Shown in pieces: positions 6,660 through 53,620 of a stretch of DNA of 64,000 nucleotides; position 1 is the stretch's first letter; every line of letters starts with the position of its first letter. The notes under the pieces are model-generated. The model saw only the letters and a list, made by a program, of their open reading frames with translations, did no database searches and was not told the DNA's origin. Source of the DNA: Nemertoderma westbladi (lineage: Eukaryota; Animalia; Xenacoelomorpha); the NCBI GenBank assembly GCA_032718475.1, contig JAUCBJ010002048.1, forward strand, positions 1 to 64,000, in the 5' to 3' direction. The position numbers were made by a program, and so were the translations under genes.

Positions 6660-8093
6660 AGGTTTTGACACTATGCAAAATCCGAGCACAGAGTTAGAAG
6701 CGCATTGGATAGGCGAACATTTCTTGCAGTGAAAGTATTTCCATACCTGTTATAGTTTTTGAGATAGTCAGACATGAGTAGCTAAAATTTGATTTTTTTT
6801 TGGTGAAGTCTTATTTCACCGGTACCTATCATCCGAAATATGGATTGTGATATATCGTTAGATGCGGGTCCACTATCTGTACATTCACATTTTTTCAAGA
6901 ATAAAATTCGATCAAGAGTTTTCGAAATATTTTCGAATTACCGGAAGCAGACTTTGGACGACTATATCTCCGGTACCGGTAGGCCTATTGAGTCGAAATT
7001 TTTTTTAATCTACTTGAACACTCCAGTGAATATTTTTTAGTTTGAAAGTTTTGCCCCAAAATGCTCAGAAGTAATTTGGAAAAAACTGATCATTTCGCGA
7101 TCATGATCTTTTGACCCCCTAGAATTTAACTTTTTTATGGTCAAATTTTGGCTACCCCCCCTAATTCGAGGGTGTGGAATCTTTTTGTAATGTTAAGGTT
7201 TTTCATACGGTGAACTCACATGACTTATGGTCTTCGAAATAAAACCGAAAACATGATCATTCCTGATCATGGCCTGATCAAATCACTTTTTGAAAATTTC
7301 GAAATGCTCAAAAGTTGCCCCTTCTTAATAGAAGTCGATTAGTAAAAAAAAAATCGGGGGTCTCAAACAAAGTTTTCGAGAAAATCGGGAAAAACCAAAA
7401 AACATGATCTTTTATGATCAGGAAGCTGATCTCGAGAACCGGTTACCGATCGAGCCACTTTTTTTTAATCAACTCCGAATAGACCATTGAACATTTCTTA
7501 CAATGAATGTTTATTAAAAAAATGCTTAGAGTCGATTTTAAATATACTGATCTTTTCGCGATCATGATCTTGAGTTTTGACCCACTGGACTTGAAACTTT
7601 TTTTATGCCCAAATTTTGGCTACCTCCCATAATTCGAGGGTGAGGAATCTTTTTGTGGTGTAAGTATAAGTTTTTCCATACAGTGAACTCCCAGGACTTG
7701 ATCTTTGAAAAAAAACCGAAAACACGATCTTTTCTGATCGCGGCCTGATCAAATCGCTTTTTGTAAATTTCGAAATGCTCAAAAGTGGCCCCTTCACCAT
7801 AGAAGTCGATTCGTAAAAAAAAAATCGGGGGTCTCAAACAAAGTTTTCGAGAAAATTCTAAAAAACTGAAAAACACGATCTTTAATGATCAGGTATCAGA
7901 TCTCGAGAACCGGTTGTTCGATTGAGCCAATTTTTATTTAATCGACTCAGGGCAGTGTTCTGAACGTTTCCTACAGTAATTGTTTATATCCAAAATGCTT
8001 AGTTACGATTTTACGAAGTCCGATCTTTGCGCGATCATGATCTTGCATTTTGATCAGGAAGAATTCACTTTTTTTAAATCTTTTAACGGGAAT
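6660..8093. mobile_element. Non-autonomous repeat with ~465-bp internal tandem units, left part; interrupted by the BEL/Pao insertion
   Basis: Units with 'CGCGATCATGATCTT' at ~7096, ~7557 and ~8030; the third unit resumes at 26387. Confidence 0.6.
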
Positions 8094-10248
8094 TGTTACG
8101 GTATATGGCGCTGTATCCACATATATTAGTCCGTTATACTGTACGCAATATTAGTCCGTTATACTGTATGTAATATTAGTCCGTTGTGCAGCATAATATT
8201 TTAGATAAGGCATAATAGCGCAGTGATATTTAGATAGGGAAACCAAAACGCCCATATATTTTGAATCCATCCATTTTGTATAATATGTAGCCCTACCTAC
8301 GTAATTTTGTATTAGGATATATGTAGATAGTTCCAGGGTAGCAAGTTTAGTCGGACCCTGGATTTCGTGCTTGCTGATATTAGCTTCAATAGGGCTAGCA
8401 TATAGGGACGCTGTCCTGGCCATTCAGCAGCCAGGGACATGATCCATTACGATATATGGTAATAATTTGAGGTTTGGGCGGCAATAGGGCTACAATCCGG
8501 CCTCCTTATTGGACTAACTGCTTCCAGGTTGGTCTAATGCTAGCGCGGACTGGAGAGCCAATAGGAGAGCGATTGAGTCACCCTATTGCATCACCCCATC
8601 CGGATCACCTATAAATTGGCGGCTTGCCGGTAGAGCTGTACAACAACCCTATACCTTACAATCCACACCCTTATATTTTAGCGTATTTCTGCAATTTGCT
8701 AAATTTTGATTAATTTCTTAAGATGATTTGCTAGTGCGATTATTCTTGATTGTGTTTCTCAATTAATCCCATCGATTACTGCTAATTACAACTGGAACTA
8801 TGATTTCTACCTTTTGTTAATGGTTCTATGTGATTCCTTTCTACGCAATAATCCTAAGGGATTTCTGAGACTGTCAGACTTTGTGATTTGCATGCGCCGC
8901 TACGGTAGCTATTAGCATAATGGAGGGCTAAGGTGCCAGTGGGCGGTGGGCACATCGGGGGGTTGAGCGACTAAGGGAGAGCGGAGGATTCAAAGGCGGG
9001 CAACGCTGGCGGGGGGTCACCGTTGCGGTCGGGCAGTTCACGCTGTGGTATGCAGACCATTCGCCGGTACGGTAATTAAGGGGCTGATGATCCAGGTTTC
9101 GTCTCTATTTAGTATTAGGGGGGCAGGAATCAGGTTAGTTAGGAGTCCTATATGTACCCGGGAGAGGCCTGCACGTATCACAACGTGGAGTGTGAAGTAC
9201 GAATAGTGAGTCGCACAACTGTGGGCTATACAGTAGTTAACTGCATAATTGCGAACTGTGATTGCTGACGCTGATTGGTGTGTTATTGAAGTGTGCCTAC
9301 GATTGTGAATGTTTAGGTAGGTGCCCCCTTTCTTTGATTGATTTCTATTTCTTAGTTACAACAATTAGTTACTGATTAGGTCAAAGTAATACGGCAATTT
9401 AGGCTATTACTAGCGAAACCTGTTGCGTAATAAATTAGAATTACGCATTCTGGAACTCTTAGTAATTAGTACGCTGTTACATATTTGTGACTGTAATTGA
9501 TTAGTAAAAAATTAAGAATTAGTATGCAGCATAGCGGAGAGTAGCTAAGGTAATAATTAGAGTACTGTAAACTATTCACGCTGAGCGGTTATTTGCATTG
9601 GCGGGCAATCAGCTAGATCGCACTATTCGGTACACACAACACGCTAGTAATTTGCTGGCCTAAAGCCAGCTGCAGGCAAGTTTAGACCCAGAGCGGAACT
9701 ATCCACGTAGAGAAAAATACTGTACCATTTTGATTATTTTAAATATTCTCGCATTCACACATTACGATAGGGAACCCCCAGTATTCGCGATTAGAAAAGG
9801 CGTAGGCAATAGCGTGCTTTAATAGTGATAGAATTAGGCGTAAGAATACTCTGAGTGCAAAGCCTCTCGCACTCGTCTTAAGTAAGCTTAGGGAGCTGAC
9901 TCGGGTTTATTGTTTTGGTTATTCCCGCGTGGCTCATAGATTCGAACAGTTAGCTCTCTATCGAGCAATCGGTAGAGAAAGGAACAAGCAATTTTGCAGG
10001 AGCTGTGTAAATTTAGTAAATTATATTAGCGGACGGCAGATAAGCGCCATCTAACGGTAAGTAGCGGTTTGTATTTAGCAACCCTTACAATTTAGCAATA
10101 TCACGCTCCTGATCCCCTTTACTTAACAGTAGAGCAGTCTTTGTGTCTTATTGGTTAGGCGAGAACTTATTAGGTTGGCAGAGGAGTATACGGGTATTTG
10201 TCTGTTCAACAGTTCTGCTGTTAGTATAGAGGTCGCGGTTGTTTATCA
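8094..10248 (+). repeat. 5' LTR (2155 bp)
   Basis: TGTTACGG...GTTTATCA; matches 24276-26381 except ~4 substitutions seen by eye and two indels (13 bp and net 36 bp); TATAAA at ~8611; short tandem repeat at 8122-8185. Confidence 0.95.
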
Positions 10249-10260
10249 GTGATACGTGCA
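10249..10260 (+). promoter_or_regulatory. Putative self-priming primer-binding site (complementary to LTR 9170-9181 and 25339-25350)
   Basis: GTGATACGTGCA directly abuts the LTR end, lacks the tRNA-type TGG start, and is the exact reverse complement of TGCACGTATCAC in the LTR. Confidence 0.7.
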
Positions 10261-11438
10261 TTGGCTGTAGGCAGTAGCGTACAGTAAATAGAGTATTCTT
10301 AGGCTGATTAGTAGTATCACAGTATTAAGTAATAAATTGGAGCACGTGATCGTCTGCTGTAGGCTATAGGCTAGCGTACAGTAAGACATTGAGTATATTC
10401 TTTTAGGCTGTTAGTTTAGATTACTGTATTCACTGGCTGCGTACAATAGTACAGTAGTACATTAGGCTGATTGCTGTTACTGCGTACGGTAGAAGGACAT
10501 TTGTTTGCCGTACCACACACAGTATCAATTAGGCTGTTAGGTTGGTGTACTGTTTTACTTACTGTACTGCATACAGTGGATGTACGGTAGTGCGTTTTGC
10601 TAATTGCGAATACAGCAGTTCCTTAGGCCTTAGGGCAAACAGTAATTAGTAAGTTTTTTGAAAATTTTAGCTAGGTTTGCGAGAATTCAGTTTCGGTCAA
10701 AATTATTTGTAAAATTCTAGAGTTTTGTACCGGTATGTTAGGTAACCGCTTAGTTATTTTATACCATCTGGAGATACATGGCAAGACGGAACTTCTGAGT
10801 TTGGGGTTCGTGTGGGTCTGCGGGTTCGGTTTGCAATCAGCGAAGGGCCTGAATCTTTGGACGCGGACGTGGAATCTCACAGCAAACAAGGTTAGTTGTT
10901 CTGTTGGCACCATTGTGTTTGTGGAAGCAGTAAAAATTACCGGTTGTTTAACTGCGAAGCTGAACTCAATTTATTAGTTAGGATATTTAGGTTTAGCCGG
11001 CCATGGTTTTTTTGAATCGCTCAAGTTAGAGAGAGAGTTAGAGAGAGTCGCAACCCGAAGATGTAGCCACGCGCTAGTGGATACATATAATATTTGAAAC
11101 TAAAATTACGTTGATTAGAGCTATATATATATAAAATTAGAAATATTCGGGCGGCAAGTATATTTTGAATATTTTGTATTAGATTCAGAGTTATTTTGTG
11201 CTATACCGGTATTTAATGCTATATAATAGCTATATAATAATATTTTTGTTTAAATATTGTGCTAGTATTTGCTATAACTATATACCCCATTAAATTCACA
11301 ATATTGCATTGCGAATTTATTTGACATTTGGACCAACTGATTATTTGACAAATAATTTGACCGTATTTCGGTTAAATTATAATCATATCTCGAACCTTTG
11401 CGAGATATTTTTGCCGGAAGGCAAACATTATTTAGACT

Positions 11439-14400
11439 ATGAGTGTCTCAGACAAGGAGGCACTAGAGGACAGCTATGAGATGGCGGCTGGACCGCCGAC
11501 TGACGATAGCGTCAATATTACTGTTGACGACAATGCCGACTATGACGACGCAGCGAGCGACGCTGACGTAAGTGAACAGGAGGACGAGACAGTGACTAGT
11601 GAGGAAGAACAACAACCTCAAGTAATAGTATTAGGATCCCCTACCGCTACTGTAAGGAAGGACTGTACAGCAGCCCGGACAGAGGTGAGTGATAGGGAGG
11701 GTAGTGTAGCAGAAGCGAGAGCCCGGAGCCCGGTTTCCAGACCTGTGGGTATGGTAAGTGCCGTGGTCCCGACGGCTGTAAGGAGTACCCGTAGTTCCCG
11801 AAATAATCCTTCAAGTCCACCGAGTGTAAGTCAGGTAAGTGATAGAGAGTTCGACACTGCGATAAAGAAGAAACTTCGCGCGCACGCCGGACATATAACT
11901 TGGACGGCGGACAAGGTAAGGAAGATGTTAGCTGACTCAGCGAACATCGGGAGGGTAGAGTTAGCAGAGATTAGAAGAGGATATAACTCAGCGTTATTCA
12001 AGCAGACGGAGGAGCTTGCAGTCCTAGCGAAGAAGGCAGTAGAGTCTCAGTCGAGCGACGTGGCGACGAGGATTTACGATAGGGTTTTGGCAGCCCTGTT
12101 GGAGCACCGCGAGTTATCGGAGCGATTCCGACGAGTTAGGACGGAGAACTGGCTGCTATGGGCATCCCAAGCGCAGGCGACTCAAGTGAGTGACGCAGAG
12201 TTAAGAGACTTAGTGGAGCGAGAAGAGATCCAGGATAAAGAAGAGCGCCGTTATCAGAGGGAAGTTACTAGCTGGCTGATGCAGAATGGAGTGGTGGTAC
12301 CGGGTCAGGTACTACCGACGACGGAGAACATCCAACAGAGGACGTTGACTCCACCCGACGACGCATCCAGAGACAGTGGCGATTCCCAGGTTAGTCACGC
12401 GCGAGGTAAGGTTATATGTGCTAGATCCCTTGTTTCGCACAACTCGGCGGAGGAGAGAAGACGCCGACTGGACGAACAGCAGGCGGAAGTTTTGCGTGCA
12501 TCGGAAGCGCGGAAGGAAGCCGAGCGGGAACGGGAGCGAACACGTAAGTTAGACGCGAAGTTGCGCGAATTGGAAGATAAAGGTAAGAGTGAGCGAGCGG
12601 AACGCGTGCAGAAGGAACGTGAACTTCAACTTGAACGCGAACGCAAGGAACGTGAACTCGAACTTGAACGCGAATGCAAGGAACGCGAACTCGAACTTGA
12701 ACGCGAGCAGAAAGAACGCGAACTCCAGCTCGAACGCGAACGCAAGGAACGCGAACTCCAGCTCGAACGCGAACAGAAGAAATGCGAACTCGAACTTGAA
12801 CGCGAACGCAAGGAACGCGAACTCGAGATCGAGAAGGAGCGACGGGCGTTGTATGAAGAGAAGGCGCGTGTGGAAGAAGAGGGCGCAGCGAGACGAGCGA
12901 GGGAAGAAGAAGAACGTAAACTGGCGCAGTTGGAAAGTGCGAGATTAAGTTTAGAGAGCGAAGAACGGACTAGGAAGGCGAACGAAATCGCCGAGAAGGG
13001 GATGCGAATGATCGAAGAATGTGGGGCGAGTGTAGGGACAGAGTTGCGAGAACTGTTCGCACTGCAGAAGGCCGAACAGGAAGCGAGAACTCCGGCTATA
13101 CGCGAGTCGACGACGACCAGAATTCCTATACCCGGTCCAGCTATTACGAGTACACGGATCGCTAAACCGTTCTCTACATATCGCACGCCAGTTGGTATTA
13201 GTGCTTCACCTATCGCCCAGGATCCACGTCATCGGAACACCGCACCACTATACACCGAACGAGAGAATGAAGAATTTAGAGAAGAAACTCCGACGGGACG
13301 AGTATTTGGCGAACCGAACCCGCGGGTTTGGAATACGCGGACGGAGCGCCGACCCAGTTCGACGGAGAACTTCCGGGTTAAACCGGAAGAGGGATCATAT
13401 GAGAGACAGCGGATTACTCAGATAGAGCCGACTATACAACAGAACCCTAGCCAGGAATTTATTACGAGGGATGAGTTAAGTGCTAGTTTAGCGCAAGCTA
13501 TATCGCCGCACATCCAACCTATAACGGACATGCTTAGCAACCTACGGTTAAAGGAAGCAGCCCAGGTAAGAAGTAATTCTAATCCTAGCAGGCCTGAGTT
13601 AGACAAAGTCCAGCCTAGTCAACGAGTACGCATATCGGAGGAGACTATACCACATAGACCTCAGGTAAGGACGCCTGTCCCGAATATTCATAATCCCAAT
13701 TTCGAAAATTCGGCCGAGAAATTTATACAAGATGCTTGGGTCAGGGCCTCGGCGCGCAAACCATCGCGAGCGCTAAGGACTGACACAGAGTCAAGCGATG
13801 AAGAGGAAGAAATGAGACGTCAGAAGTCCCGAAACTATAAGGAAAGAAGGACCGACGCGGAGCAGGTAAGTTGGAACCACCGGGAAAGGACCAGACTTAA
13901 CAACCCTGCGGAACTAAACCATTTGTTAACCCGCAACGACGCAACCCTTAGGGACATAGGTAAGTTTGCTGCTAGGCAAGGACTGCCGACGCAACAACCC
14001 CAGAAGTTTATGGGTAACCATAAGCATTGGAGGACCTTCAAAACCTATGTCGACGAGCAGCTAACCAACAGCACCTTTACTCCCAACGAGAAGTTCAACT
14101 ATTTGCTTCAGATGCTCCATCGAGAACCTAGAGCCATTGCTGATAACTTCGTCGGCAATGAAAGAGCATTCGAGTTAGCGATGAAGACGCTTAGTGACAT
14201 CTACGGGAATAAAACCAAGATGGCGCAGTCGATAGTAGAAGACTTGGGTAAGGGCGGAAGGATTACAACTCCGTTAGAGCTGTTGAACTTAGCGAACGCT
14301 ATTTCGAACGCATTGGACATCTTGAGGACGGTGAATCTACCTCATCATGGTGATCACGCCGAAGTTTTAAAGAGCGTAATAAGACGTCTAAACATGCGTT

Positions 14401-15101
14401 ATCGACAGAAATGGCGCAAATTAGAAAATAAGTTGGAGGGTCAAGGTAAGGTGTTGACACTTCAGCATATTCATGACATGATAGCCACAGACGCAGTAGC
14501 AGAGATGAAATCAAACTTCTCAGAGGAGAATATGAGGGAGTCTAAGCCTGTTACCGGTAAGTCTATGGTAAGTTTTGACGATGACAGGACCACTGTGACA
14601 TTTAACTCAGTAGACAGATATAATTCGAGTACCCTAGCCTTTAGATCAGACTCGCGAGTATGGTCAGGTGAGCGGTTAGATAGACCTAGGTTAAAGCAAC
14701 AGGAGTTGCCGGATGGATTTGTAGGTTGCCAATACTGTTTACTAAAGGAGGTAAGATCTGACGATCATAAGTTAGATAGTTGCAGACGGTTCAAAGAATT
14801 AAATTCGGAACAGAGAAGAGTTCAAGTGCGGACGTTGGACACCTGTTGGGCATGTCTTGCGCCAGGCCATGTACGGCGGCAGTGCCCGAACAGCAAGGAC
14901 GGATGCATGGAATGCGGCAGACTACATCACAAGTTGCTACATGCGGATTTCCACACCCCAATGGACCGTTACTTACAGCGAAATCCTCACAGGAAGGGGA
15001 GCAAAGAACCCATATCGATAAGGAGGAATACGTATACCGGCATTCAGGATGATGGTTACCAACCAGGTTCATCGGATGAGGATGGCGAGTCGAGCGCGTG
15101 A
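11439..15101 (+). CDS. gag: BEL/Pao Gag (1220 aa): acidic N-terminus, coiled-coil 11-aa repeats, DUF1759-like region, three zinc motifs
   Basis: 'PQKFMGN..HW.TF...EKFNYL' region; CQYC..H..C, CWACLAPGHVRRQC, CMECGRLHHKLLH. Confidence 0.9.
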   Translation: MSVSDKEALEDSYEMAAGPPTDDSVNITVDDNADYDDAASDADVSEQEDETVTSEEEQQPQVIVLGSPTATVRKDCTAARTEVSDREGSVAEARARSPVSRPVGMVSAVVPTAVRSTRSSRNNPSSPPSVSQVSDREFDTAIKKKLRAHAGHITWTADKVRKMLADSANIGRVELAEIRRGYNSALFKQTEELAVLAKKAVESQSSDVATRIYDRVLAALLEHRELSERFRRVRTENWLLWASQAQATQVSDAELRDLVEREEIQDKEERRYQREVTSWLMQNGVVVPGQVLPTTENIQQRTLTPPDDASRDSGDSQVSHARGKVICARSLVSHNSAEERRRRLDEQQAEVLRASEARKEAERERERTRKLDAKLRELEDKGKSERAERVQKERELQLERERKERELELERECKERELELEREQKERELQLERERKERELQLEREQKKCELELERERKERELEIEKERRALYEEKARVEEEGAARRAREEEERKLAQLESARLSLESEERTRKANEIAEKGMRMIEECGASVGTELRELFALQKAEQEARTPAIRESTTTRIPIPGPAITSTRIAKPFSTYRTPVGISASPIAQDPRHRNTAPLYTERENEEFREETPTGRVFGEPNPRVWNTRTERRPSSTENFRVKPEEGSYERQRITQIEPTIQQNPSQEFITRDELSASLAQAISPHIQPITDMLSNLRLKEAAQVRSNSNPSRPELDKVQPSQRVRISEETIPHRPQVRTPVPNIHNPNFENSAEKFIQDAWVRASARKPSRALRTDTESSDEEEEMRRQKSRNYKERRTDAEQVSWNHRERTRLNNPAELNHLLTRNDATLRDIGKFAARQGLPTQQPQKFMGNHKHWRTFKTYVDEQLTNSTFTPNEKFNYLLQMLHREPRAIADNFVGNERAFELAMKTLSDIYGNKTKMAQSIVEDLGKGGRITTPLELLNLANAISNALDILRTVNLPHHGDHAEVLKSVIRRLNMRYRQKWRKLENKLEGQGKVLTLQHIHDMIATDAVAEMKSNFSEENMRESKPVTGKSMVSFDDDRTTVTFNSVDRYNSSTLAFRSDSRVWSGERLDRPRLKQQELPDGFVGCQYCLLKEVRSDDHKLDSCRRFKELNSEQRRVQVRTLDTCWACLAPGHVRRQCPNSKDGCMECGRLHHKLLHADFHTPMDRYLQRNPHRKGSKEPISIRRNTYTGIQDDGYQPGSSDEDGESSA

Positions 15102-15137
15102 GAAGTGACCTGCCAAGGTTTCACCGCGGATAGTTAA

Positions 15138-17693
15138 CCGACCAGCGCGCGGACGTATTTATCATCGGCCACGTCGGAAATATTTAGCGTGATTCCGGTG
15201 AAACTCACTGGCGATAAGGGATCGAAGAGAATATATGTGATGTTGGACACTGCGTCCACATTATCCTATATCGACGAGGAAGTGGCGAGAGCCGTTTCTA
15301 GCTTCCAGGACGCCGAGGAGATCCAAATAGAGTTGAAGTCTATGCACGGGGTAGGAGACCTCAAGGGACACAGAATTTCGGTAGAACTAGATTCCCTACT
15401 TCCGAGAGACCAACATACTCGACAAGAACGGAAAGCTTTGCCATTGGACGGATTTAAGTGTCTAGCTATGAAGGGATTCGGCAGGCAGTTAGGTAAGGTG
15501 CCGCCGATGAGTCCCATAGCACAGGAGTATTTTGACAAGCTCAGGATACCCAGACACCAGGTAGGTTATAGGAATGTTTCTATGTTGATTGGTGCAGAGC
15601 AGCTGATCGCACACCAGATATGGGAAACGAGACCAGCTGAGCCGCATGTCAATGGACCACATGCCCATAGGACTATATTAGGTTGGTATACACGAGTACC
15701 CATGTCTTATGAGTTTACAGGTGGCGACAAGCCAATGAACAGATACGATGAATTACGGCCTATAACTCAACCACCGTTAGTAGAACCACCAGACATAGAC
15801 GAGTTTAGGAGAACCTGTATTGACCACTATAGTGACTTTAGCGAGTCGGACGAGGAGTTGATTCCCGATAATGTTAGGTTGTCGGAACCACTTCATAACG
15901 ACCGGACAGATAGTGAACCCGAGGACTACTGTTATCAGACCCGTGGGTCTGGTTCAGCGGCCCACGCTACCTATTTGACTAACGTTTTGACTTATACTGA
16001 CATAGTGGAGGGTCAGGTGGCTAAATATCGAGACCTAGACATTTTCCAATACAGTGAGGAGGAGCTACAGAAGGAATTGATACGCCAGGACCTCGAGACA
16101 GGAGCCAGAACCGTCGAATGGCTGGATAGGGACGCAATGGAACCCGGTGGATATGACCTAGCCATGTCTACTAATGAGAAACGGTCGCTGGAGATGATGG
16201 AAGACACCATACGTCTACTACCGACTGGACATTTTGAAGTTGGAATGTTGTGGCGTCGACAACCACCTAAGTTGGAGAACAACTATAACTTAGCCTTGAA
16301 AAGATTAAACGGAGTAAGGGCTCGGTTGTTAAGGAATCCGAACATTAGGGAGAAGTATTGCGCCCAGATCAACAACTATTTCGCTAAGGGATTTGCTGGG
16401 AAGGTAGAGGTCCCTGACTTAGTGACAGACCAGACTTATTACCTTCCACACCAATATGTGACTCACCCTGACAAGCCAGACAAAGTCCGAGTAGTCAACG
16501 ACTGCGCAGCAGTCTATAGAGGTATGTCCCTGAATTCAGAGTTGATGGACGGACCCAACCTGAATAATTATTTGATTGGAATACTGTTGCGTTTTAGACA
16601 GCGGCGATTCGCATTTACTTGTGACATCGAGGCGATGTTCCACCAGGTAAGAGCCTGTAAGGCAGACCAGGATAGCCTTCGCTTTCTCTGGTACGAGAAT
16701 GAAGACCTATCCGGCCCAGTGGTTAAATACCAGATGTACGTTAGGATATTTGGCGCCCGCGATAGTCCAAACGGCACGCTGTTTGTTCTAAAGAAAACGG
16801 CAACAGCCCAGATTGGTAAGTATCCAGTAGAGGTAATCGAGTCCATCTTGAGAAACTTCTATATGGACGACGGATTGGTGTCCAAGGACACAGAGGAACA
16901 AGCCATAGAAGTGGCTCACGGCCTGCAAGAGTGCTTGGCTACAGGGGGTTTTCCTCTGACCAAGTTCACTACAAACTCGGAGGCCCTATTAGAGTCGTTC
17001 CCGGTAAAAGATCGCGGGAGCGGAGACATTGAATTGGGGGTAGAACCAATCCCCATGGCGCGAGTACTGGGACTCGCTTGGAATCCGAACTCAGATAAGT
17101 TCCAGGTAAGAGTTAGATTTGAGCCCAGTAGCCCAGACAAAGTTTTGACAAAGAGGATTTGCTTATCGACATTAAGTAGACTATTTGACCCGATGAACTT
17201 TATCAGTCCGGTTATATTACAGGCACGAGCGTGCATGAGGAAAATTTGGTTGTCCGACGTAGAGTGGGACGAACCAATATCTCCTATACATGCAAAGCAG
17301 TGGAGGGAGTGGGAAGCTGAGTTGCATCTATTGAAAAATATAGACGTACCCCGTTCCTACTTTCCGAATCAGCTGGTATTCCCAGCTGATCTCGAACTCC
17401 ATCTGTTTAGTGACGCAAGTGACACCGGCTTTGGTATGGTAGCCTACCTTCGCCGAGAGGTAAGTCAGGACAAGTTTGAGACGGCTTTTGTGACTTCTAG
17501 ATCAAAGACAATGCCGGTCAAATACATGACTGTCCCTCGTGCAGAGTTACAGGCAGCTGTAGTTTCAGTCGAGGTAAGTAAGCAAATAACAGAGGAGTTA
17601 GACACGACATTGACCTTATTCTATTGGACGGACGCATCCTTGGTGTTAGTATACATTGCGGCCGACAATATCCAATATCGAAACTTCCATTAG
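15138..17693 (+). pseudogene. pol: Pol part 1: aspartic protease, RT and truncated Pao RNase H
   Basis: LDTAS protease, 'KVRVVNDC', 'DIEAMFHQV', YMDD, 'LHLFSDAS', 'VPRAELQAA', 'YWTDA'; same frame as gag but separated by two stops; ends before the expected NPAD..SRG motif. Confidence 0.9.
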
Positions 17694-19321
17694 TTAGCGG
17701 ACAACCGTCGCTGGCATTAGAGTCATGCAGTATTTATGACAAATTACTAAATTCGTCTGCCTCTTGGCTGACAATTTGTAAAAGAACTGCGTGGTTAAGC
17801 CGATACGTTTCGTACCTTTGTATAAAACATTTGAAACATTTGAGAGAACCATCGAGCGCTAATAGTGAGCGAATTCAGAAATTGAAACAACCTCTGACAG
17901 AGGATGAGATTGATCAAGCGGAATTAAAGCATTTGAAACATTATCAAATGTGTGCCTTCCCAAAAGAATTCCATCTATTATCGGCTCAACGACCAGTTCT
18001 CTATAAACCCCTTAGAAAATGGAGTCCATTAATCCATAAGGGTTTAATTTGTCATAGATCGAGAATCCAGACTGTCGACATAAACTCACAGTTTCGGTTC
18101 CCAGTGATAATCCCTAGTCACCCAATAGAATTGCAAAGAGCGATTCTATGGGATATACACAAGAGGTTGCATCACGCGGGAAGGTTACACTGTTTGTCGG
18201 CAGCGAGACAGCGATTCATTCTATTGCAGCCAAGCAGGGCAGTAGGCACTATGTACGACGCCTGTCTGGTTTGCAAGAGAGTGAACGCCAGAGTATTGGA
18301 ACAGGAGATGGCTGAACTCCCGGAAGCGAGAGTGCAGGCATATGACCCACCCTTTACGAACACAGGGGTGGATTGTTTTGGTCCGATTGAAGCAAAGAGT
18401 GGACGGCTGACCCACAAGCGATGGGGTCTGCTACTGACATGCATGGCTAGTAGAGCCATACACATTGAGCGTGTGGCAGACATGTCGACCAAATCTCTGC
18501 TCCTGGCCTTGAAGAGATTTATGGCCAGGAGAGGACTAGTAAAGGCGTTCTACTCCGATAAGGGTACAAACTTTGTCAGAGGGAATAGCGAGTTGAACGC
18601 GGCTCATAAAGCGGCACAGAATAAGGAAATTTCTGCAGCACTTTTGCCGCAAAGAGTAGAGTGGAGATTTAATACTCCAGAAAGTCCTTGGAGAGGAGGA
18701 AGTTGGGAGCGTTTAGTTCGCTCTGTAAAGCAGGCCATTGCCAAAACATTGCCTGTAAACAAACAACTTACCGACGACGAACTGGTCACAGCTTTCATTG
18801 AAATCGAGCATACCCTAAACTCGAGGCCGATAGCTATGTTGCCAGACGGTGTTGCATTAACGCCGAATCATTTGCTAATGCAGAGTCCAGCATTTCTTGT
18901 GCCGGCATCAGAACCCATTAGTGCCGACCTATATAGTCGTAAAGGCTGGAAAGTAACACAATTTGTCGCGTACACATTCTGGGAATATTGGCGGGAATAC
19001 TATCTTCCCACCATATCTACCAGAACAAAGTGGTACAAAACGGTTCGGAGTCTCCAAAGGGGAGATTACGTACTGATAACCGAGCCGATTGTCAAGAGAA
19101 AGTACTGGGAGACGGGAGTGATCTTGCACACACACCCAGACGTGCAAAACATAGTGCGCACAGTCACTGTGAAAATTATGTGCAAGTGTCCGCACCCAAA
19201 AAAGTGTAAAACTAATGGTTTACACACCTTGGACCGACCGGTCCAAGATATCGTGTTATTAGAGGAGACACGTATCGAGACGGGAGATTATAATTTGTCT
19301 CCTGCCTCAAAACAGAATTAG
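17690..19321 (+). pseudogene. pol: Pol part 2: integrase (HHCC + DDE), out of frame after an internal deletion
   Basis: H..LHHAG...C..C; GVDCFGP, SDKGTNF, GGSWERLV; 'FWEYWREYYL' C-terminal BEL/Pao motif. Confidence 0.9.
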
Positions 19322-20092
19322 TGTTGGACGCAACTCACTTCGTATGCATTCCTCGTATGCAAATACAAGGAAATGCATAGGAGCGGGGTTGTGGTGACTT
19401 GCGTTGAGTTTTGTCTGGTGGGTATCAAAACGAAATTTTATTTTCAAAAATTTTGGAAAATTTAAAATTTTAAAAATTAGAAGTGAACCCAAGACAATTC
19501 CAGACGCTGTGTATAGACGCGTTTTAGAATTCGTCTATAGATATACAGTAATTTGAAAAGTCGTGAAGCCTGGAAAATAGCATTTAGAAACCATGGTGAC
19601 GGCTATATTACGTAGGAGTGTAAATTGAGTTTAGCAACTTCCACAGATTGGTGCCAACAGTGCAACTAAGGTGCTAAAGGTTAGTAGCACCAGGGGCGTA
19701 CATGGACCCCACTCAGTAGTTTGCAGGATGTGTGATGTTCGATTATCAAACCTGTGGGTTTGGTATAGTCGGGTATTGTGGCTATGGTCCTTTCTAACTA
19801 CTGTAGTTTAGTACGAGTGATGGGAGTAGTTTGGGCATCAAAAAGTGAGTTGGTCACGGCCAGTTTATCTCCAAAGTTTTGCGCTATGCATGGGAATAGG
19901 TTAGAGGATAGTTAGTTAGGAAGAGACGGGATCTAGAGAGTCGAACCTGAACTGCTGGAAGGCGGGGGGGGGGGGGGGGGGGGGGTTCGGGAGGTCTGTC
20001 TTTCGGCGACATCTAACTGATTTACCCACAGTGTAATTGGTTACGTAACGGCACTTATTGGGATATATATATATGTATATACGCGAGGCATA

Positions 20093-23000
20093 ATGGAGAA
20101 GGATATTAGAGCGCAACCGCGCAGAGGATTTACTGCCAGAGAGGAGGCGGAGCTACCATTCGCGCGACCAGGATGTAAAGACTCTAACGTTTACTACCAT
20201 GGGCGGTCCGTGATGGAGCTAAACGGAAAATATAAACCGACTTATGATAAGGAATTACGGAGGGAAAGAATGAGAGCGTTGGGGGACCGGATGGAAGTTT
20301 TGCGGAGAGAGTATCGCACGCGGTATCCCTACGACTTCGCTTTGGACGTATGTGACATTAGTGCAGACCCGGATGAGGAGATCGCACGACTGTACCATAT
20401 GAATATGTATTTACGACACGAAGAACCTCTACCTGCAATCCGAGATCAGTTCGACGGAATGCATCTATACCGGAGGACTCGAGGCGAGGATCAGGAGACG
20501 CCGAAAGTCTTCAGCGTGTACAAGCTGTTCTACAAGTGTGGTGAATGCATGAATAAGCAAGACGTGGCGATTCCCGATCGACTAGACGAGCAACATCCGG
20601 AACCGATATTAACGCGATGTCCAGCTCACCAGTTCCTTAGATACAACGAGGGAGGTTACCCGATGAGCAACCCGATGATCAGTATCGACTTCAGCGGAAA
20701 GCGACCTCCGAGACCCATTACGCCGACCGTTACGACATTAGATCCGTATACGGAGATTAAACCCTGTTCGACACCCAGTTTGATAGAGACGGCAGCGGCC
20801 ATTTCGCTGTACCGAGCCTACAAGGATCTAGAGGCGCGGCGCGAAGCGGCGCGGGACTCGGGTACCAAACCCGCGGGTTTGGAGCTCTCGAGTCCCTGGA
20901 CTGCGTTTACTTCACCTCACCGAGCGAGAAGCCTCACGCCTGAGCATCAGGACGACATAGACGCGTTGCGGCAGGAGGAGCGAGCGGCGAAGGCGAAAGA
21001 GTTATTTGAGAATCGGATAGCGGAGTATAATAAGACCGCGGATAGACATCAAGAGGAGACGAGGAGAGTGACCGGATTTGTTCCACAGGTCGTATCTCAA
21101 CCCCGACCGGTGTATTATTCCGACGGCACCGAACCTGCGATATTAGTAGATCATCCGGAGTCGCGAGAAGCGATACGATTCTTGCCGATGGTAAGAATGG
21201 CGGATCATTGGAACGTTGACTGTCTACGGGAAGTTTTATGCGCGAAGTTCTTGCGTGATGTCCCAATGCAGATCACAGATTACGACACATTGGATAAGAT
21301 TGGAGCTCCGGGGAAGGAGAGTAAATTATTTGGATGGTTGGATAAGTACATCAAGGTATGGGTCGCGGTGGCTACATTCCCAGACGACGAGGAGGTAGAC
21401 CAGACGTGGCTGAGGAGGAAGGGTTCTTATACCCGATATGATGACCACAAGGCTATCGAGCGCATGTGGACCCCATCAGACGAGATTCAGCGTCAGTGGA
21501 GGAAAACGGAGGAATCACTGCAGGATTGGAGGGTGATGTTCTACGACAATGAAGGAGGGTCCCATCAAGAATGTTTGACTAGCAAGTGTATTCAAATTCG
21601 TGCAGCCGATGGTGTGACTCATGTGTTTATGCGTGTGAGGGCGGATCGAGAGAGACCGGAGCCCATCATAACGACACAATATCGGAAGGGGAAGGATCCT
21701 AGGGAGCAGATTTTGGAGGTATGCAGGCGAGGAGGTATGCACGGAGCGGAGCGTATCGACGCCAGGATGCTACCCAAGAAAGTTAGAGAGGCTATTCTCA
21801 ACCAAGATTACGTCAAGGTGGGATCGGGAGTCCAGAGCGATTTGGAGAGCGACTTCAACGCCATGACTGATCTGGAAGATAGATTGCCGAGACCGTTTGT
21901 CGACACCAAGCTATTGTTGCTATGGGCACAGGATATTGGAATTTATAGGGAGTATCCCAACTCTGCCAAGACTGGTATGGGCTTTATAGCACACTTGTTG
22001 TATAATTGGGACTTTAAGTTAAAGACGCAGAAGAAGTACGAGGAGGCGTATGGCGAATACAACACGCCACCGGGAGCGGAGTTCAAATCCCACTTCAAGC
22101 GGCAAGCGTTAGTGTATTGGAACATTTGCGCGCCACCCCGTGCGTCGCTACAATATTATTTGGTGCTTGAGTCGAACACGGTGACTTGTTTATTAGCGGA
22201 TATCGTTGCGCGAGTTTTGAAGCGTCATCCATTGGTATTCGGAGGAGATCAATACGTTCGCTCGAAAGGGGGAATCCAATCCGACGTGATGAAGCGTTTC
22301 TTAACCCCGTTCTTCAACCAATCGTTAGAGAATACGTCGATGGTTAGGAGAGGATTAGCGATATTCCAAGGAGTATATCGACAGAACATCGGAGATTTGG
22401 GAGACCGACCGTCGATGGAGTATCCGACGCCAGAAGCTTTGGAGAAGTGGTTCGGGAATCAAACCCGCGGGTTTCGTACTCCCTTCCACTCGGAGGCTGA
22501 TAGACCTGTTAAGGAGGGCTGGCCGGAGACGTTAGTAGAGGTGTTCGGAGTAGATCTTCCGGTGGAGAAGACATATCCGAAACGAACGCGGGAGGAAATA
22601 TTGGAGATAGAGGACAAGGGCGAGGATGTTTACTTTGTTCCGGATCGACAACCGTTGACCGGAGAGGACGACATCGTATTAGACATTGGGAAGGAAGGAA
22701 GTGCGAAACCGATTGGAGACCTCATATACGAGAGGGCCTGGTTTCCACAAGCGCGTAGGTGCAAATTGTGCGGCAGCACAAGGCACAATCTAAAGTCGTG
22801 CGACGCGGTAGTAGAGGCGGCGCATAAGGTCTGTCGTTGGTGTAATGAGACCGACCATTCGTTTCACACGTGCACCGTCTTCATTTCTCAATGTGGATAT
22901 TGTGGGGTAAAGGGACATCGTAGCGCGAGATGTCAGCTGCGAGATGATTCCTTTCAAAACCATAGCGCTAACCTACTTCGGGAGATGTTAGATAAGTGGG

Positions 23001-23800
23001 AGAGTGTGGCTGATTACCATATTCAAGCGCAGATGCGTTGGTTACCATTTAAGGCGGGATATGGATTTTGGGCGGTAGACCCATCGCATGTTGCGTACGA
23101 GCCATATCTACAATCGCTACCACAATATCAGGAACTCATCCTAACTGCTCAAGACCTTCCACAGAACACTGGAGTTATCGTAGTCCGAGAATACTTCAGA
23201 CAATTGAATATGGATAACAAGTACACCTGGAACTTCGTTGCTATTTGCGATCGCATCACGAAGGGTGTATTTACGGAGACTAGAAAAGTGGTACGCGCGC
23301 GAGGTGAATGGAGGATGGCGGCTATACAATACCGCAACGAATTCTTGTTGACTCATGTGCCAGTGGGTTCATTGACCGCTGAGAGGATACAGGGACAGAG
23401 GATCGCAGCGACCACAGCGACGACCGCTGGAGCTCAAGGCTCGCGGAAAGAACCAGGAGGAGGGGTCCACGACAAGCGTCAAGTCAAGGACGACCACTAT
23501 CACTCTATTATAGAAGCACAGAGGTTGCAGCGCAAGGCGCAGGGAGCGTCGGAAAAAGCGCGTGTGCAACTGCATAAGGAAGAGTTGGCGGAAGCGACCA
23601 CGGGAGCACGACAATTGGGACGAGGCCGAGGAAGAAGCACGAGCCGGGAATCTGTCGGGGCTCAGGGAACATCGTCGCCGGTTCCGGGGAGTGATGCCTC
23701 ACGGATGCCGTCAACGGAGTCGACTGGAGGACGACTGGTGTATCTGGGGAGGGGGCGAAAGAGAGGAGCGAGCCCAAAGAACCCAGGAGCGGGTCGATAA
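20093..23800 (+). CDS. Accessory ORF3 (1235 aa): DnaQ/DEDDy 3'-5' exonuclease-like domain + 3 CCHC zinc knuckles + RG-rich tail
   Basis: FYDNEG (ExoI), CIQI, LPKKVREAIL.....KVGSGVQSD (ExoII), FVDTK, W...P....QYYLVLE (ExoIII-like); CKLCGSTRHNLKSC, CRWCNETDHSFHTC, CGYCGVKGHRSARC. Confidence 0.8.
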   Translation: MEKDIRAQPRRGFTAREEAELPFARPGCKDSNVYYHGRSVMELNGKYKPTYDKELRRERMRALGDRMEVLRREYRTRYPYDFALDVCDISADPDEEIARLYHMNMYLRHEEPLPAIRDQFDGMHLYRRTRGEDQETPKVFSVYKLFYKCGECMNKQDVAIPDRLDEQHPEPILTRCPAHQFLRYNEGGYPMSNPMISIDFSGKRPPRPITPTVTTLDPYTEIKPCSTPSLIETAAAISLYRAYKDLEARREAARDSGTKPAGLELSSPWTAFTSPHRARSLTPEHQDDIDALRQEERAAKAKELFENRIAEYNKTADRHQEETRRVTGFVPQVVSQPRPVYYSDGTEPAILVDHPESREAIRFLPMVRMADHWNVDCLREVLCAKFLRDVPMQITDYDTLDKIGAPGKESKLFGWLDKYIKVWVAVATFPDDEEVDQTWLRRKGSYTRYDDHKAIERMWTPSDEIQRQWRKTEESLQDWRVMFYDNEGGSHQECLTSKCIQIRAADGVTHVFMRVRADRERPEPIITTQYRKGKDPREQILEVCRRGGMHGAERIDARMLPKKVREAILNQDYVKVGSGVQSDLESDFNAMTDLEDRLPRPFVDTKLLLLWAQDIGIYREYPNSAKTGMGFIAHLLYNWDFKLKTQKKYEEAYGEYNTPPGAEFKSHFKRQALVYWNICAPPRASLQYYLVLESNTVTCLLADIVARVLKRHPLVFGGDQYVRSKGGIQSDVMKRFLTPFFNQSLENTSMVRRGLAIFQGVYRQNIGDLGDRPSMEYPTPEALEKWFGNQTRGFRTPFHSEADRPVKEGWPETLVEVFGVDLPVEKTYPKRTREEILEIEDKGEDVYFVPDRQPLTGEDDIVLDIGKEGSAKPIGDLIYERAWFPQARRCKLCGSTRHNLKSCDAVVEAAHKVCRWCNETDHSFHTCTVFISQCGYCGVKGHRSARCQLRDDSFQNHSANLLREMLDKWESVADYHIQAQMRWLPFKAGYGFWAVDPSHVAYEPYLQSLPQYQELILTAQDLPQNTGVIVVREYFRQLNMDNKYTWNFVAICDRITKGVFTETRKVVRARGEWRMAAIQYRNEFLLTHVPVGSLTAERIQGQRIAATTATTAGAQGSRKEPGGGVHDKRQVKDDHYHSIIEAQRLQRKAQGASEKARVQLHKEELAEATTGARQLGRGRGRSTSRESVGAQGTSSPVPGSDASRMPSTESTGGRLVYLGRGRKRGASPKNPGAGR

Positions 23801-24275
23801 TACATCATAGCACAGGGCGACAGACTCTAGATATATACATCATCGTCGCTCTGATGTATATTGTAGCATTTAGAAATCTTCGACTAGACTCATATACACT
23901 AGTTGAGCTGTTTTGAATTTATATTATGAGAGAGGCGAAGGAAGTGATTGGGGAGACAAACCTGCGGGTTTGGCTTACTCCTTTCACTTGCCCTAGCAAA
24001 TTTTTTTATATATATTTGATTTTGTATGTAGTAATCATTATGTAGTACGAACGAGAAACAATATTTGTAAATTTAATTTGAATGAGAGAGATAATATTTG
24101 TAAATTTAATTTGTATGCAATTCATTATGCAATATCTATAGCAATATTTTGTAAATAGTAGGATTTATAGTATCAAGTATTTAGATTATTTGGAAGAAAT
24201 TTATTTTGTTTGTATACATCACCTTATACTCTTCTACAGTTGGAGGGAAACATTATATGATTTCCCTTGGAGCGG

Positions 24276-26381
24276 TGTTACGGTATATGGCGCTGTATCC
24301 ACATATATTAGTCCGTTATACTGTACGCAATATTAGTCCGTTATACTGTATGTAATATTAGTCCGTTGTGCAGCATAATATTTTAGATAAGGCATAATAG
24401 CGCAGTGATATTTAGATAGGGAAACCAAAACGCCCATATATTTTGAATCCATCCATTTTGTATAATATGTAGCCCTACCTACGTAATTTTGTATTAGGAT
24501 ATATGTAGATAGTTCCAGGGTAGCAAGTTTAGTCGGACCCTGGATTTCGTGCTTGCTGATATTAGCTTCAATAGGGCTAGCATATAGGGACGCTGTCCTG
24601 GCCATTCAGCAGCCAGGGACATGATCCATTACCATATATGGTAATAATTTGAGGTTTGGGCGGCAATAGGGCTACAATCCGGCCCCCTTATTGGACTAAC
24701 TGCTTCCAGGTTGGTCTAATGCTAGCGCGGACTGGAGAGCCAATAGGAGAGCGATTGAGTCACCCTATTGCATCACCCCATCCGGATCACCTATAAATTG
24801 GCGGCTTGCCGGTAGAGCTGTACAACAACCCTATACCTTACAATCCACACCCTTATATTTTAGCGTATTTCTGCAATTTGCTAAATTTTGATTAATTTCT
24901 TAAGATGATTTGCTAGTGCGATTATTCTTGATTGTGTTTCTCAATTAATCCCATCGATTACTGCTAATTACAACTGGAACTATGATTTCTACCTTTTGTT
25001 AATGGTTCTATGTGATTCCTTTCTACGCAATAATCCTAAGGGATTTCTGAGACTGTCAGACTTTGTGATTTGCATGCGCCGCTACGGTAGCTATTAGCAT
25101 AATGGAGGGCTAAGGTGCCAGTGGGCGGTGGTTGAGCGACTAAGGGAGAGCGGAGGATTCAAAGGCGGGCAACGCTGGCGGGGGGTCACCGTTGCGGTCG
25201 GGCAGTTCACGCTGTGGTATGCAGACCATTCGCCGGTACGGTAATTAAGGGGCTGATGATCCAGGTTTCGTCTCTATTTAGTATTAGGGGGGCAGGAATC
25301 AGGTTAGTTAGGAGTCCTATATGTACCCGGGAGAGGCCTGCACGTATCACAACGTGGAGTGTGAAGTACGAATAGTGAGTCGCACAACTGTGGGCTATAC
25401 AGTAGTTAACTGCATAATTGCGAACTGTGATTGCTGACGCTGATTGGTGTGTTATTGAAGTGTGCCTACGATTGTGAATGTTTAGGTAGGTGCCCCCTTT
25501 CTTTGATTGATTTCTATTTCTTAGTTACAACAATTAGTTACTGATTAGGTCAAAGTAATACGGCAATTTAGGCTATTACTAGCGAAACCTGTTGCGTAAT
25601 AAATTAGAATTACGCATTCTGGAACTCTTAGTAATTAGTACGCTGTTACATATTTGTGACTGTGATTGATTAGTAAAAAATTAAGAATTAGTACGCAGCA
25701 TAGCGGAGAGTAGCTAAGGTAATAATTAGAGTACTGTAAACTATTCACGCTGAGCGGTTATTTGCATTGGCGGGCAATCAGCTAGATCGCACTATTCGGT
25801 ACACACAACACGCTAGTAATTTGCTGGCCTAAAGCCAGCTGCAGGCAAGTTTAGACCCAGAGCGGAACTATCCACGTAGAGAAAAATACTGTACCATTTT
25901 GATTATTTTAAATATTCTCGCATTCACACATTACGATAGGGAACCCCCAGTATTCGCGATTAGAAAAGGCGTAGGCAATAGCGTGCTTTAATAGTGATAG
26001 AATTAGGCGTAAGAATACTCTGAGTGCAAAGCCTCTCGCACTCGTCTTAAGTAAGCTTAGGGAGCTGACTCGGGTTTATTGTTTTGGTTATTCCCGCGTG
26101 GCTCATAGATTCGAACAGTTAGCTCTCTATCGAGCAATCGGTAGAGAAAGGAACAAGCAATTTTGCAGGAGCTGTGTAAATTTAGTAAATTATATTAGCG
26201 GACGGCAGATAAGCGCCATCTAACGGTAAGTAGCGGTTTGTATTTAGCAACCCTTACAATTTAGCAATCGTCTTTGTGTCTTATTGGTTAGGCGAGAACT
26301 TATTAGGTTGGCAGAGGAGTATACGGGTATTTGTCTGTTCAACAGTTCTGCTGTTAGTATAGAGGTCGCGGTTGTTTATCA
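24276..26381 (+). repeat. 3' LTR (2106 bp)
   Basis: Direct repeat of 8094-10248; preceded by a short purine-rich GGAGCGG and a hairpin AGGGAAACAT-TAT-ATGATTTCCCT. Confidence 0.95.
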
Positions 26382-26386
26382 GGAAT

Positions 26387-26865: not shown

Positions 26866-27614
26866 GGGTTCTCCGAACACGATAACCTGCGGTTGGGGCC
26901 CTGACCGTCCAGTCCCTTAGCCAATCCCTAATTTCCCCATGGCCCTGTATTGGCCTCTCTGAGAGATGAGCTGATGCACTGGCATCTCTCTGTTGCTGAC
27001 AATATATCCTCATTCTCCCTCCTATCCAATATTGTGTTAACAATATGATTCGTAAATCATGAATTTCCCCATTTTCCGCTGGGTGGTGCAGCAAATTGGA
27101 TCCGCTAACACATCATCTCATCATCCCGGGGAGTGTTTGACGACTTGCTGGACTAAATATATCTCGGTTGCAGTTGTTATTTAGATTTTTGAATGGCCTA
27201 GTGTACATTGGTGTAATGGGTGAATGAATATATGTTGATAAAGGAAATTAAATCAATGCGTAAATAAAATTCAATTTGCCTATGGGTAAAAAAGTAGACC
27301 CTTTTCTACTTACTTTGTGGTATATTCAAGAATGAAATGTTTTTTATTTTTTTATTTTAGATAAATATATTGAATTTTTATGGTAGTGCTAATGGCACTA
27401 CCACATAAATTCAATTTACTTATTTGGCCGCGTAATATTTTAGAACATTACTACTGAATGTTAACACTGCTTAAAAATAGTTATTAAACTAATTCAAGAC
27501 AGTGTGCACCTGCACAAGAGATATTACTATAAATATAATAGGGAAGGACACGATGAGAAAGGGTCTTTAGACAATGAGGATTTCATTCGGAAAAGTTTAA
27601 AATTCCTTTGCAAT

Positions 27615-29839: not shown

Positions 29840-30568
29840 GTACGGGATAGACGAAGGAGTAAATCAAAATTCATCTCTCTCCAGGGAAAACCGACGTAAA
29901 TAACAGCTCAATACTCCCAAAATAAAAATTGCAATCCATTCTATTGACTTTAGTTCATTGCCTTGGTTAGAATAACGTGCCACTGCAACCTGCTCCTTTC
30001 CCTAAATTGAAAATTCAACATTGAGACAATAAATTAATTCTATCTCCATTAGGATGGTCGTTATGTCGTCCTGCCTAACACAGTTAGTTTTATTTCTATT
30101 TACAGTTAAATACAAAAATTTAATTGCAACCTGTTCTATTGACTTTAACTTATTGAGTTGACTACAGTAGAATAACATTACCGTAACCTACTCCTTTCTC
30201 TTGACTACATAAGGATATGACACCCCCACAAACCTAATAACACAGCGACGCAGGACCTAATGTGCAGTAATTATGTCGCAGAAACTAACACCGCATAGGA
30301 CTTTACGACCAAAATACCTAATGACGTAGAACCGTTATATCTTACATATTACAACTATTTGAGTTCAGATTTGTCAGAAATTTTTGTAATAATATAATAG
30401 TTGTTGCCGCCTAATGATGATAGAATTAAAATGGGATTATAAATTACAATGATTTACTGACGGATAATGTCAAAGAGAAGAAATACAATGTTGTACTGCA
30501 CGAAACCTCAACCATCTAATTATCACATGATAAAATGAATTAATTATAGATTTTCAACAGCTAAATTT

Positions 30569-52529
<21,961 letters not shown>

Positions 52530-52679: not shown

Positions 52680-53620
52680 CAGGGCCAGGGCCAGGGCCAG
52701 GGCTGGTATCCCTTTCAATTTGATCTTTATATGTCATAGCCGTTCGACCACGGCTACGGTTTCACTGTGTTGGTTACCAGAAATGTAGATCTGGTACTGT
52801 ATGACCTCATGTTTACTTCTCCAGCAGCGCCAACTGAATCTTAATCTGCGTTCACGGAGTGTTGTTGATACAGGGGGTATTGTACCATAAAGCTCGGCAT
52901 TTGTCATGTGTTGTCTCCAGCTGATGTTTAGGGCTGCCCTCAGTAGTCTTGTGTAGCAACCATCAATTCGTTGTTCAAGTGATTTAGTCAGTGTCCAGGT
53001 CTCACCCCCGTATAAAAATACACTTTCCACCGTGGCTCGAAAGAACTTGGTCTTCAGGTGCCTGGAAAGGTCTGATTTTCTGATGGTATCCACTTTTGAT
53101 AGAGCTACACATCCCTTTGCTTTTCTAACTTCTGTGTCTGTTTTGTTACTCTCTATCCATGACCCAACCCAAGGTACTGGAAGTCGTCAACCTTACTATA
53201 GGCAAGCATACTTACTGTAGTGGATTATTTATCAATTGTTGTCAAGTTTCCATTAACATTAAAAAGTCATGAATTCGGTCTTGGTAGCATTTATATGCAG
53301 TCCAACCTCCTTAGCAGCCCTCTCCACTTTATTCAGTAGAAGCTGTGCATCTGCTAGCGTATTAGAGAGCAGGGCGATGTCATCCGCATAGTCGGTGTCT
53401 GTGACTGTAGTTTCCGGATATCTACTGCTTCTACGTTCCTGTAGTGTGAATCCACAGTTACAGCACAATTACAAATAGTAATGGCGCCTATGTGTCACCT
53501 TACAGTACGCCAGCCAGGATTGGGAAGAACTCAGTTTCACAATCTGCGTTGTGAGAGTATATCACAAAATACATTCAATGCCGGAGACAATTACTTCTGG
53601 TATTCCATAATGAATTGAAA
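52680..53620 (-). mobile_element. 5'-truncated RTE-clade LINE (second family)
   Basis: 'DYADDIALL', 'FFRATVESVFLYG.ETWTL', 'IDGCYTRLLR'. Confidence 0.85.

Follow-up and report, generated by a model that had tools for sequence, protein, structure and literature searches.

In the literature searched, as far as the accessible portions of the sources go, self-priming of reverse transcription has been demonstrated for Tf1 only, and predicted for its relatives and for one plant copia lineage. In Tf1 the first 11 bases pair with its primer-binding site (PBS), RNase H cutting between bases 11 and 12, according to the available parts of two accounts (PMC7175516, PMC4600332), with a further source for the mechanism, likewise available in part, in PMC5341516. 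Self-priming is moreover predicted, in the accessible text of PMC6317226, for the Tcn1 and TAR lineages. For TAR (Houba and Osr-1, of the plant Ty1/copia elements) the prediction was likewise made from sequence and within an otherwise tRNA-primed superfamily, meaning that, going by that portion of the paper, the trait has already been proposed outside Ty3/gypsy.

BEL/Pao elements have been described differently: according to the ICTV account of the Belpaoviridae (PMC8742986), their PBS is 18 nt long and complementary to the 3' end of tRNA-Arg or tRNA-Gly, the LTRs measure 0.2-1.2 kb and the genomes 4.2-10 kb. A term search of the accessible text of two BEL/Pao papers (PMC554778, PMC3118150) returned no mention of PBS or tRNA, and no self-primed BEL/Pao element appears in the available portions of four further sources (PMC3601003, PMC8220671, PMC3286476, PMC5443660). 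Neither was one found in the wider literature at the level of titles and abstract openings.

The window, here the whole 64,000-nt stretch of Nemertoderma westbladi DNA that was analysed, holds a full-length LTR element of 18.3 kb at 8094-26381, with the following features:

8089..8093, plus strand: 5' copy of the target-site duplication, 5 bp, GGAAT
8094..10248, plus strand: 5' LTR, 2155 nt, TG...CA
9170..9181, plus strand: putative self-primer, a 12-nt PBS complement with AC at its 3' end
9206..9211, plus strand: candidate splice donor, the first GT[AG]AG in the LTR, 24 nt after the primer
9333..9355, plus strand: candidate acceptor, pyrimidine-rich; a second one ends at 10129
9429..9434, plus strand: AATAAA, the sole one in the LTR; A9429G in ~60% of contig depth
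10249..10260, plus strand: putative primer-binding site, offset 0 from the LTR end, no TGG
10263..10415, plus strand: leader; within it a degenerate duplication, 79% over 57 nt
11436..15101, plus strand: gag-like ORF with coiled-coil insert, DUF1759 and CCHC motifs
15138..17693, plus strand: pol, protease-RT-RNase H frame; in-frame stops between gag and pol
17582..19321, plus strand: integrase frame with H2C2 and DUF5641, in a frame different from RT-RNase H
20021..23800, plus strand: extra ORF, ATG at 20093, 1235 aa; three CCHC knuckles, and a domain predicted to be 3'-5' exonuclease-like
24269..24275, plus strand: putative polypurine tract (PPT), a short purine-rich tract that abuts the 3' LTR
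24276..26381, plus strand: 3' LTR, 2106 nt, with the primer copy at 25339-25350
26382..26386, plus strand: 3' copy of the target-site duplication, GGAAT

The two LTRs are 99% identical, with five single-base differences and two gaps of 13 and 36 nt, the 3' LTR being without equivalents of 8948-8960 (13 nt) and 10100-10135 (36 nt). The 36 nt missing from the 3' LTR include the acceptor-like site that ends at 10129. The usual BEL/Pao form is TG...CA with a 5-bp duplication; as a G directly follows each LTR, a CAG end with a 4-bp duplication is also compatible with the letters. Two in-frame stops (15099-15137) separate gag from pol, and the frame changes between RT-RNase H and integrase at 17582-17693, so that this copy is likely defective or dependent on recoding. 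Elsewhere in the window, a tandem array of a 16-nt unit fills ~5.8 kb at 32921-38770, and GC-skewed low-complexity tracts lie at ~27500-29900 and ~40400-42400. The translation of exons at 30569-31958 on the minus strand resembles, by eye, a nicotinic acetylcholine receptor-type subunit, in keeping with an animal host. The stretches 44524-45664 (plus strand), 47342-49717 (minus strand), 39363-39923, 52734-53186 and 57799-58599 (minus strand), again judged by eye, resemble fragments of a THAP-domain DNA transposon and of several non-LTR reverse transcriptases.

The Pfam domains of the element are, in order, DUF1759, PF05380 (Pao peptidase/RNase H, E 1.7e-39), Integrase_H2C2 and DUF5641, with weak protease and RVT_1 matches upstream of the RNase H. 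Because Pao-type domains are thus present in the order PR-RT-RH-IN, the element is BEL/Pao by its proteins, and the four domains bear out the label that the initial annotation had given it. The element resembles Belpaoviridae/Semotivirus (BEL, Pao, Tas, Sinbad, Suzu) in having gag-pol with this domain order, the Pao domains, TG...CA LTRs and a duplication of 5 bp, and in carrying an additional ORF at the position of env. In contrast to the ICTV description, however, the element has no tRNA site, 2.15-kb LTRs and a length of 18.3 kb; it is a BEL/Pao variant that departs from the priming described there. In size, element and LTRs reach nearly twice the upper ICTV range for BEL/Pao. Unlike the Tf1 groups, which belong to Ty3/gypsy, the element encodes Pao-type RNase H and integrase domains; no chromodomain was found among its Pfam matches, nor any sign of Ty3/gypsy chromovirus ancestry. 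Judged by its letters, it at most works like Tf1, without being a Tf1/sushi member.

All 102 homologues are 26-47% identical, most of them carrying PF05380. In an RT tree of 32 rows, built without named reference elements or a tRNA-primed control, the window sequence occupies a long branch and falls in no starred clade. Its neighbours in the tree are elements of aquatic invertebrates, among which the loci with the priming signature are scattered, at poor resolution.

The priming signature itself lies at the LTR boundary. Indeed, the 12 nt at 10249-10260 are the exact reverse complement of 9170-9181 (12 of 12 nt), as had been noted in the initial annotation, and the LTR partner recurs at 25339-25350. 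The match extends on neither side, and the 12-mer is present only at 9170 and 25339. The tRNA-type TGG that had been reported missing is indeed absent up to 5 nt from the LTR end. A TGG at 10262 was ruled out as a tRNA site, being 13 nt from the LTR end. This arrangement, with no tRNA site and a PBS of ~11-12 nt complementary to the element's own LTR, is that of Tf1/Tf2 in Schizosaccharomyces pombe, Tj1 in S. japonicus, Tf1/sushi and Tcn1. A more partial likeness exists with the fungal GalEa copia elements (Conserved Hairpin Site), which also have no tRNA PBS and hold a reverse-complement pair at the PBS position; their pair is however a palindromic hairpin of 9 bp that is conserved, and no complement derived from the LTR was found for it in the accessible part of the source (PMC5445492). 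In the BEL/Pao elements examined the partner is instead an LTR stretch, with letters that change from family to family.

Could the match have arisen by accident? The chance had been put at ~1e-4 beforehand, and our resampling agrees, the 12-mer at offset 0 being recovered in 2 of 20000 Markov resamples of the LTR and, with offsets 0-5 allowed, in 18 of 20000 (9e-4). A 12-nt LTR complement of any kind occurs at 2 of 14016 internal positions, namely at the PBS and at 10290. In a blind scan of the whole LTR plus 250 nt the PBS match ties with two other 12-nt matches, and the significance hence comes from the position at the LTR end, not from length alone. The long LTR and these ties are what can be said for chance, or for a one-off inverted duplication in the window copy; yet the probability at the PBS position is 1e-4 to 9e-4, the 12-mer is found in both LTRs and across the family, and the signature is present in all eight readable relatives (see below), leaving this explanation hardly credible.

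No tRNA gene was detected in the window by ARAGORN, and Rfam matched nothing within LTR and leader at E values as high as 5, nor within the element at gathering score. An element-encoded tRNA, as serves as primer in Cer7 of C. elegans, was ruled out by the empty ARAGORN and Rfam results; the Cer7 tRNA was not encountered in the literature search. An exact 20-nt pattern spanning LTR end and PBS had 0 matches in viral contigs, and its single metagenome match is due to chance, having nothing else in common with the window. Queries with the reverse transcriptase against viral contigs returned 3 and 243 pattern matches, none of which was confirmed.

To place the signature in a wider context, we turned to related elements. 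A GTDB scan yielded eight BEL/Pao loci with 29-47% RT identity, and a search of the same eight genomes added five, giving 13 animal-type BEL/Pao loci (L002-L009 and L021-L025) in eight GTDB species-representative MAGs. Their presence there most likely reflects host contamination. Within the genus of genome G004, 1 of 21 genomes matched, G004 itself. Five loci with an unreadable LTR end and following sequence were left out (L002, L009, L021, L024, L025), so that 8 of the 13 were readable, with L004 and L023 complete with both LTRs and target duplications. Each element was scored by the longest run of bases directly after its LTR, starting at offsets 0-5, that has an exact complement within that LTR, whether unbroken or joined over a GT-AG junction.

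An own-LTR complement of 10-12 nt, 0-5 nt past the LTR end, is present in all eight readable relatives. With a strict acceptor filter, six of seven relatives reached 10-12 nt (nulls 0-3 of 300), and L022 only 7 nt (35 of 300). The filter was relaxed after the junction of L022 had been recognised by eye, with the null relaxed alike, and all seven then reached 10-12 nt (nulls 0-6 per 1000). L003, which was added later and had its LTR end set after the match was seen, shows 11 nt (null 2 per 1000). As the LTR ends had been placed by eye in six of the eight relatives, a blind scan over each LTR plus 250 nt was performed as well, and the top complement fell 0-4 nt past the LTR end in 7/7 relatives scanned, L022 being omitted because its LTR and PBS are on separate contig parts.

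Among the nine elements, that of the window included, no two thus share a PBS sequence, and every PBS matches the LTR of its own element. In a cross-test matrix the own pairs measure 10-12 nt in all eight cases, whereas foreign PBS-LTR pairs stay at 9 nt or less in 54 of 56, one of the remaining two reaching 10 nt and the other 11. In 7/9 elements the match opens with GT, and the primer consequently ends in AC, with an eighth within 1 nt. The initial annotation had proposed to see whether PBS and LTR 12-mer change together among related elements; congruent with its expectation, complementarity is kept with different letters in 8/8 readable relatives.

These comparisons bear on a primer of host origin, be it a tRNA half or fragment, a spliced-leader RNA or an snRNA, with the LTR match as a captured or incidental copy. 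Nine of the 12 PBS nucleotides may correspond to a eukaryotic tRNA-Ala anticodon arm, and in L023 a TGG stands at offset 1, so that a tRNA primer is conceivable for that locus. A precedent also exists in half-tRNA priming, known in Ty1/copia lineages according to the accessible text of PMC6317226. Nevertheless, a host RNA would have to account for nine different PBSs that match their own LTRs over a length equalled in 2 of 56 foreign pairs, and for six that do so only across their own predicted splice junction; with Rfam empty for LTR and leader in addition, we regard it as very unlikely.

The predicted junctions divide the elements into two types. The complement is contiguous in two of the eight relatives (L004 and L007). 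In the remaining six its parts meet at a predicted splice junction of the GT-AG kind, the introns measuring 76-399 nt, with donors GTAAGT, GTGAGT or GTATGT, and AG acceptors. In the window element the complement is contiguous, the best junction match being 8 nt with the strict filter; no primer of the splice-junction type was found there, and among the joints listed no intron-bearing one falls inside the 12-mer. On sequence grounds, the window element would be of the contiguous-primer type, while 6/8 relatives would need splicing to assemble their primer. This differs from Tf1, which does without a splice-made primer, and from TAR, with its Ty1/copia domain order and plant hosts, where no splice-junction primer was found in the available part of PMC6317226. 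The distance from primer end to LTR end sets the window element apart as well, at 1067 nt versus 62-153 nt in seven relatives.

Variation within the host family was assessed in five runs, all in the form of contigs. Within the 12-mer, C9179T accounts for 57, 52 and 44% of contig depth in three deep runs from two samples, its partner position 10251 not being among the differences listed (40 of 387), and A9177G for 2% in one run. Both changes keep the pairing as G-U, with duplex energies of -16.7 and -18.9 kcal/mol, respectively, against -18.9 kcal/mol for the original; both wobble-type variants however belong to the most frequent transitions too, 9 of the 18 listed changes being C>T or A>G. Nor is the 12-mer clearly more conserved than its flanks, with 2 of 12 positions varying compared to 3 of 25 upstream and 12 of 35 downstream. 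Host DNA contigs fill all 30 bins of 8050-11600, and with 6729 (X1) and 2428 (X3) variant contigs the family looks abundant.

Some contigs run along the LTR at ~90% identity and depart from it beyond 9170 (runs X1, X2 and X3, with 2, 4 and 4 contigs), others beyond 9172 (runs X1 and X3, with 1 and 2 contigs). Among the diverging loose-end rows AC is kept at 9180-9181 in four of five, the fifth having it one base earlier. We read the diverging contigs as apparent sister families whose primer differs but keeps the register, hinting at 9170-9181 as a module edge, with the U3/R edge near 9170. Of the other LTR signals, AATAAA is not a fixed one given the frequency of A9429G, and TATAT at 9149 was rejected as promoter since it is not conserved (T9151G in 65-82% of depth). 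TATAAA at 8610 marks a candidate alternative start region.

RNA folding was used to shed light on the pairing itself. The isolated primer/PBS helix has a predicted energy of -18.9 kcal/mol. In unspliced folds it forms in two of seven folded segments, those starting at 9170 and ending at 10270 or 10300 (p ~1), and is absent from the other five, being lost with more leader or upstream sequence. Deletion of the candidate intron 9206-10129 brings the helix to 0.82-0.97; splicing as a loop-shortener was however rejected, as 14/14 arbitrary same-size deletions also restore the helix and the effect thus lends no support. No DNA joint for the 9206-10129 intron is among the joints listed, and run X4, whose RNA nature is only guessed, gave 19 contigs and no joints. 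A constrained fold encloses the window PBS with 23 bp, and the U5-leader duplex was equalled or exceeded by shuffles in 104 of 300; a U5-leader stem above shuffles was seen in 0/9 elements. In its 1067-nt loop, and in having no U5-leader stem above shuffles, the window element is unlike Tf1.

A second perfect 12-nt complement connects leader 10290-10301 with LTR 9841-9852, the LTR arm of which overlaps a donor-like motif at 9840, and this pairing would cross the primer helix as a pseudoknot. The leader stretch 10310-10325 is furthermore able to pair with the PBS (-12.2 kcal/mol). Together these two pairings would permit alternative folds, and along with the instability of the long-range helix in unspliced folds they fit a selected pairing whose role is structural, in dimerisation, packaging or a translation switch, the true primer being protein-linked or non-specific. 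Such a role, on the other hand, does not predict a best complement at the point from which priming has to start, 0-4 nt beyond the LTR end, as found in 7/7 blind-scanned relatives, nor a 3' end that is usually AC, nor the absence of a tRNA site, and we consider it unlikely.

A related question is whether the primer acts in cis. An element-derived primer may instead be supplied in trans, by a second packaged RNA, by the 3' LTR copy (25339-25350) or by a short LTR transcript that a 3'-5' exonuclease, for instance the predicted one of the extra ORF, trims back, and the 1067-nt loop, which disfavours the cis helix in folds, would be congruent with this. The exonuclease-like domain predicted in the ORF, at ~21458-22240, points in the same direction (atlas score very high; 24 of 30 matches to PF01612). 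The call derives however from one language-model search, and Pfam has no match for either the whole protein or the domain; moreover, relatives of ~5.5-7.5 kb have the same signature with no match to the extra ORF. The exonuclease is thus not required for the signature, and priming in trans appears quite improbable.

As to the extra ORF as such, a comparison to the PDB gave one match (E 0.059) and a homologue search none; among 1.84 billion representatives one relative was recovered, with 28% identity and weak CCHC only. A single-sequence structure model reached a pLDDT of 34. An acceptor-like site and a branch motif lie just upstream of ATG 20093, which suggests that the ORF may be expressed from a spliced mRNA. 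An extra ORF after pol with an RNase D/EXD-like nuclease is also found in the bdelloid elements Juno and Vesta (DEDDy ORF3), which are retrovirus-like clades, no BEL/Pao case being found in the accessible part of that source (PMC5408684). In contrast to the Juno and Vesta ORF3, the exonuclease of the window ORF is a language-model lead, and the protein has three CCHC knuckles besides.

Aggregated, the findings establish a real feature, by sequence a signature of self-priming like that of Tf1, in a superfamily for which tRNA priming is described. We think it probable that minus-strand DNA is primed not by a tRNA but by 9170-9181 of the element's own transcript, annealed to the PBS and cleaved after C9181. 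Transcription would start at or upstream of 9170, a position taken by analogy only to Tf1, where the primer is the transcript's first bases. Following annealing of 9170-9181 to 10249-10260, the RNA would be cut after C9181, probably by the RNase H of the reverse transcriptase, which would then extend the C9181 3'-OH and copy A10248 first, yielding a flush CA end. The strong-stop DNA, reaching from 10248 back to 9182, would transfer to R of the 3' LTR, downstream of 25350, whereby the 3' LTR would pass on U3 and primer. Should the primer be copied during plus-strand synthesis, the LTR's own 12-mer would in part template the PBS, and this would account for the joint change of PBS and primer between families.

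For the origin of the trait, the initial annotation had proposed that this lineage may have independently evolved self-priming. The self-supplied primer is backed by 8/8 relatives, but an origin limited to this lineage is too narrow, the signature being common to families 29-47% identical in RT. With the signature in distant families across a poorly resolved tree, an old trait of a wide clade is more likely. In the broadest version, to which we give about even chances of being right, a wide BEL/Pao clade of aquatic invertebrates dropped tRNA priming, and its primer is self-made, mostly joined by the spliceosome from two LTR exons; the window element would be a form that lacks the intron and carries its primer ready-made, primer and PBS rewriting one another in each cycle, and the added exonuclease may trim the primer.

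If true, a self-primed BEL/Pao clade would bring the trait to a third LTR superfamily, and would explain the failure of tRNA-based PBS finders on such elements. With the own-LTR complement, LTR ends and concealed LTR introns can be annotated by a simple rule. Finally, a splice-assembled primer, if true, would represent a new coupling of host RNA processing to reverse transcription.
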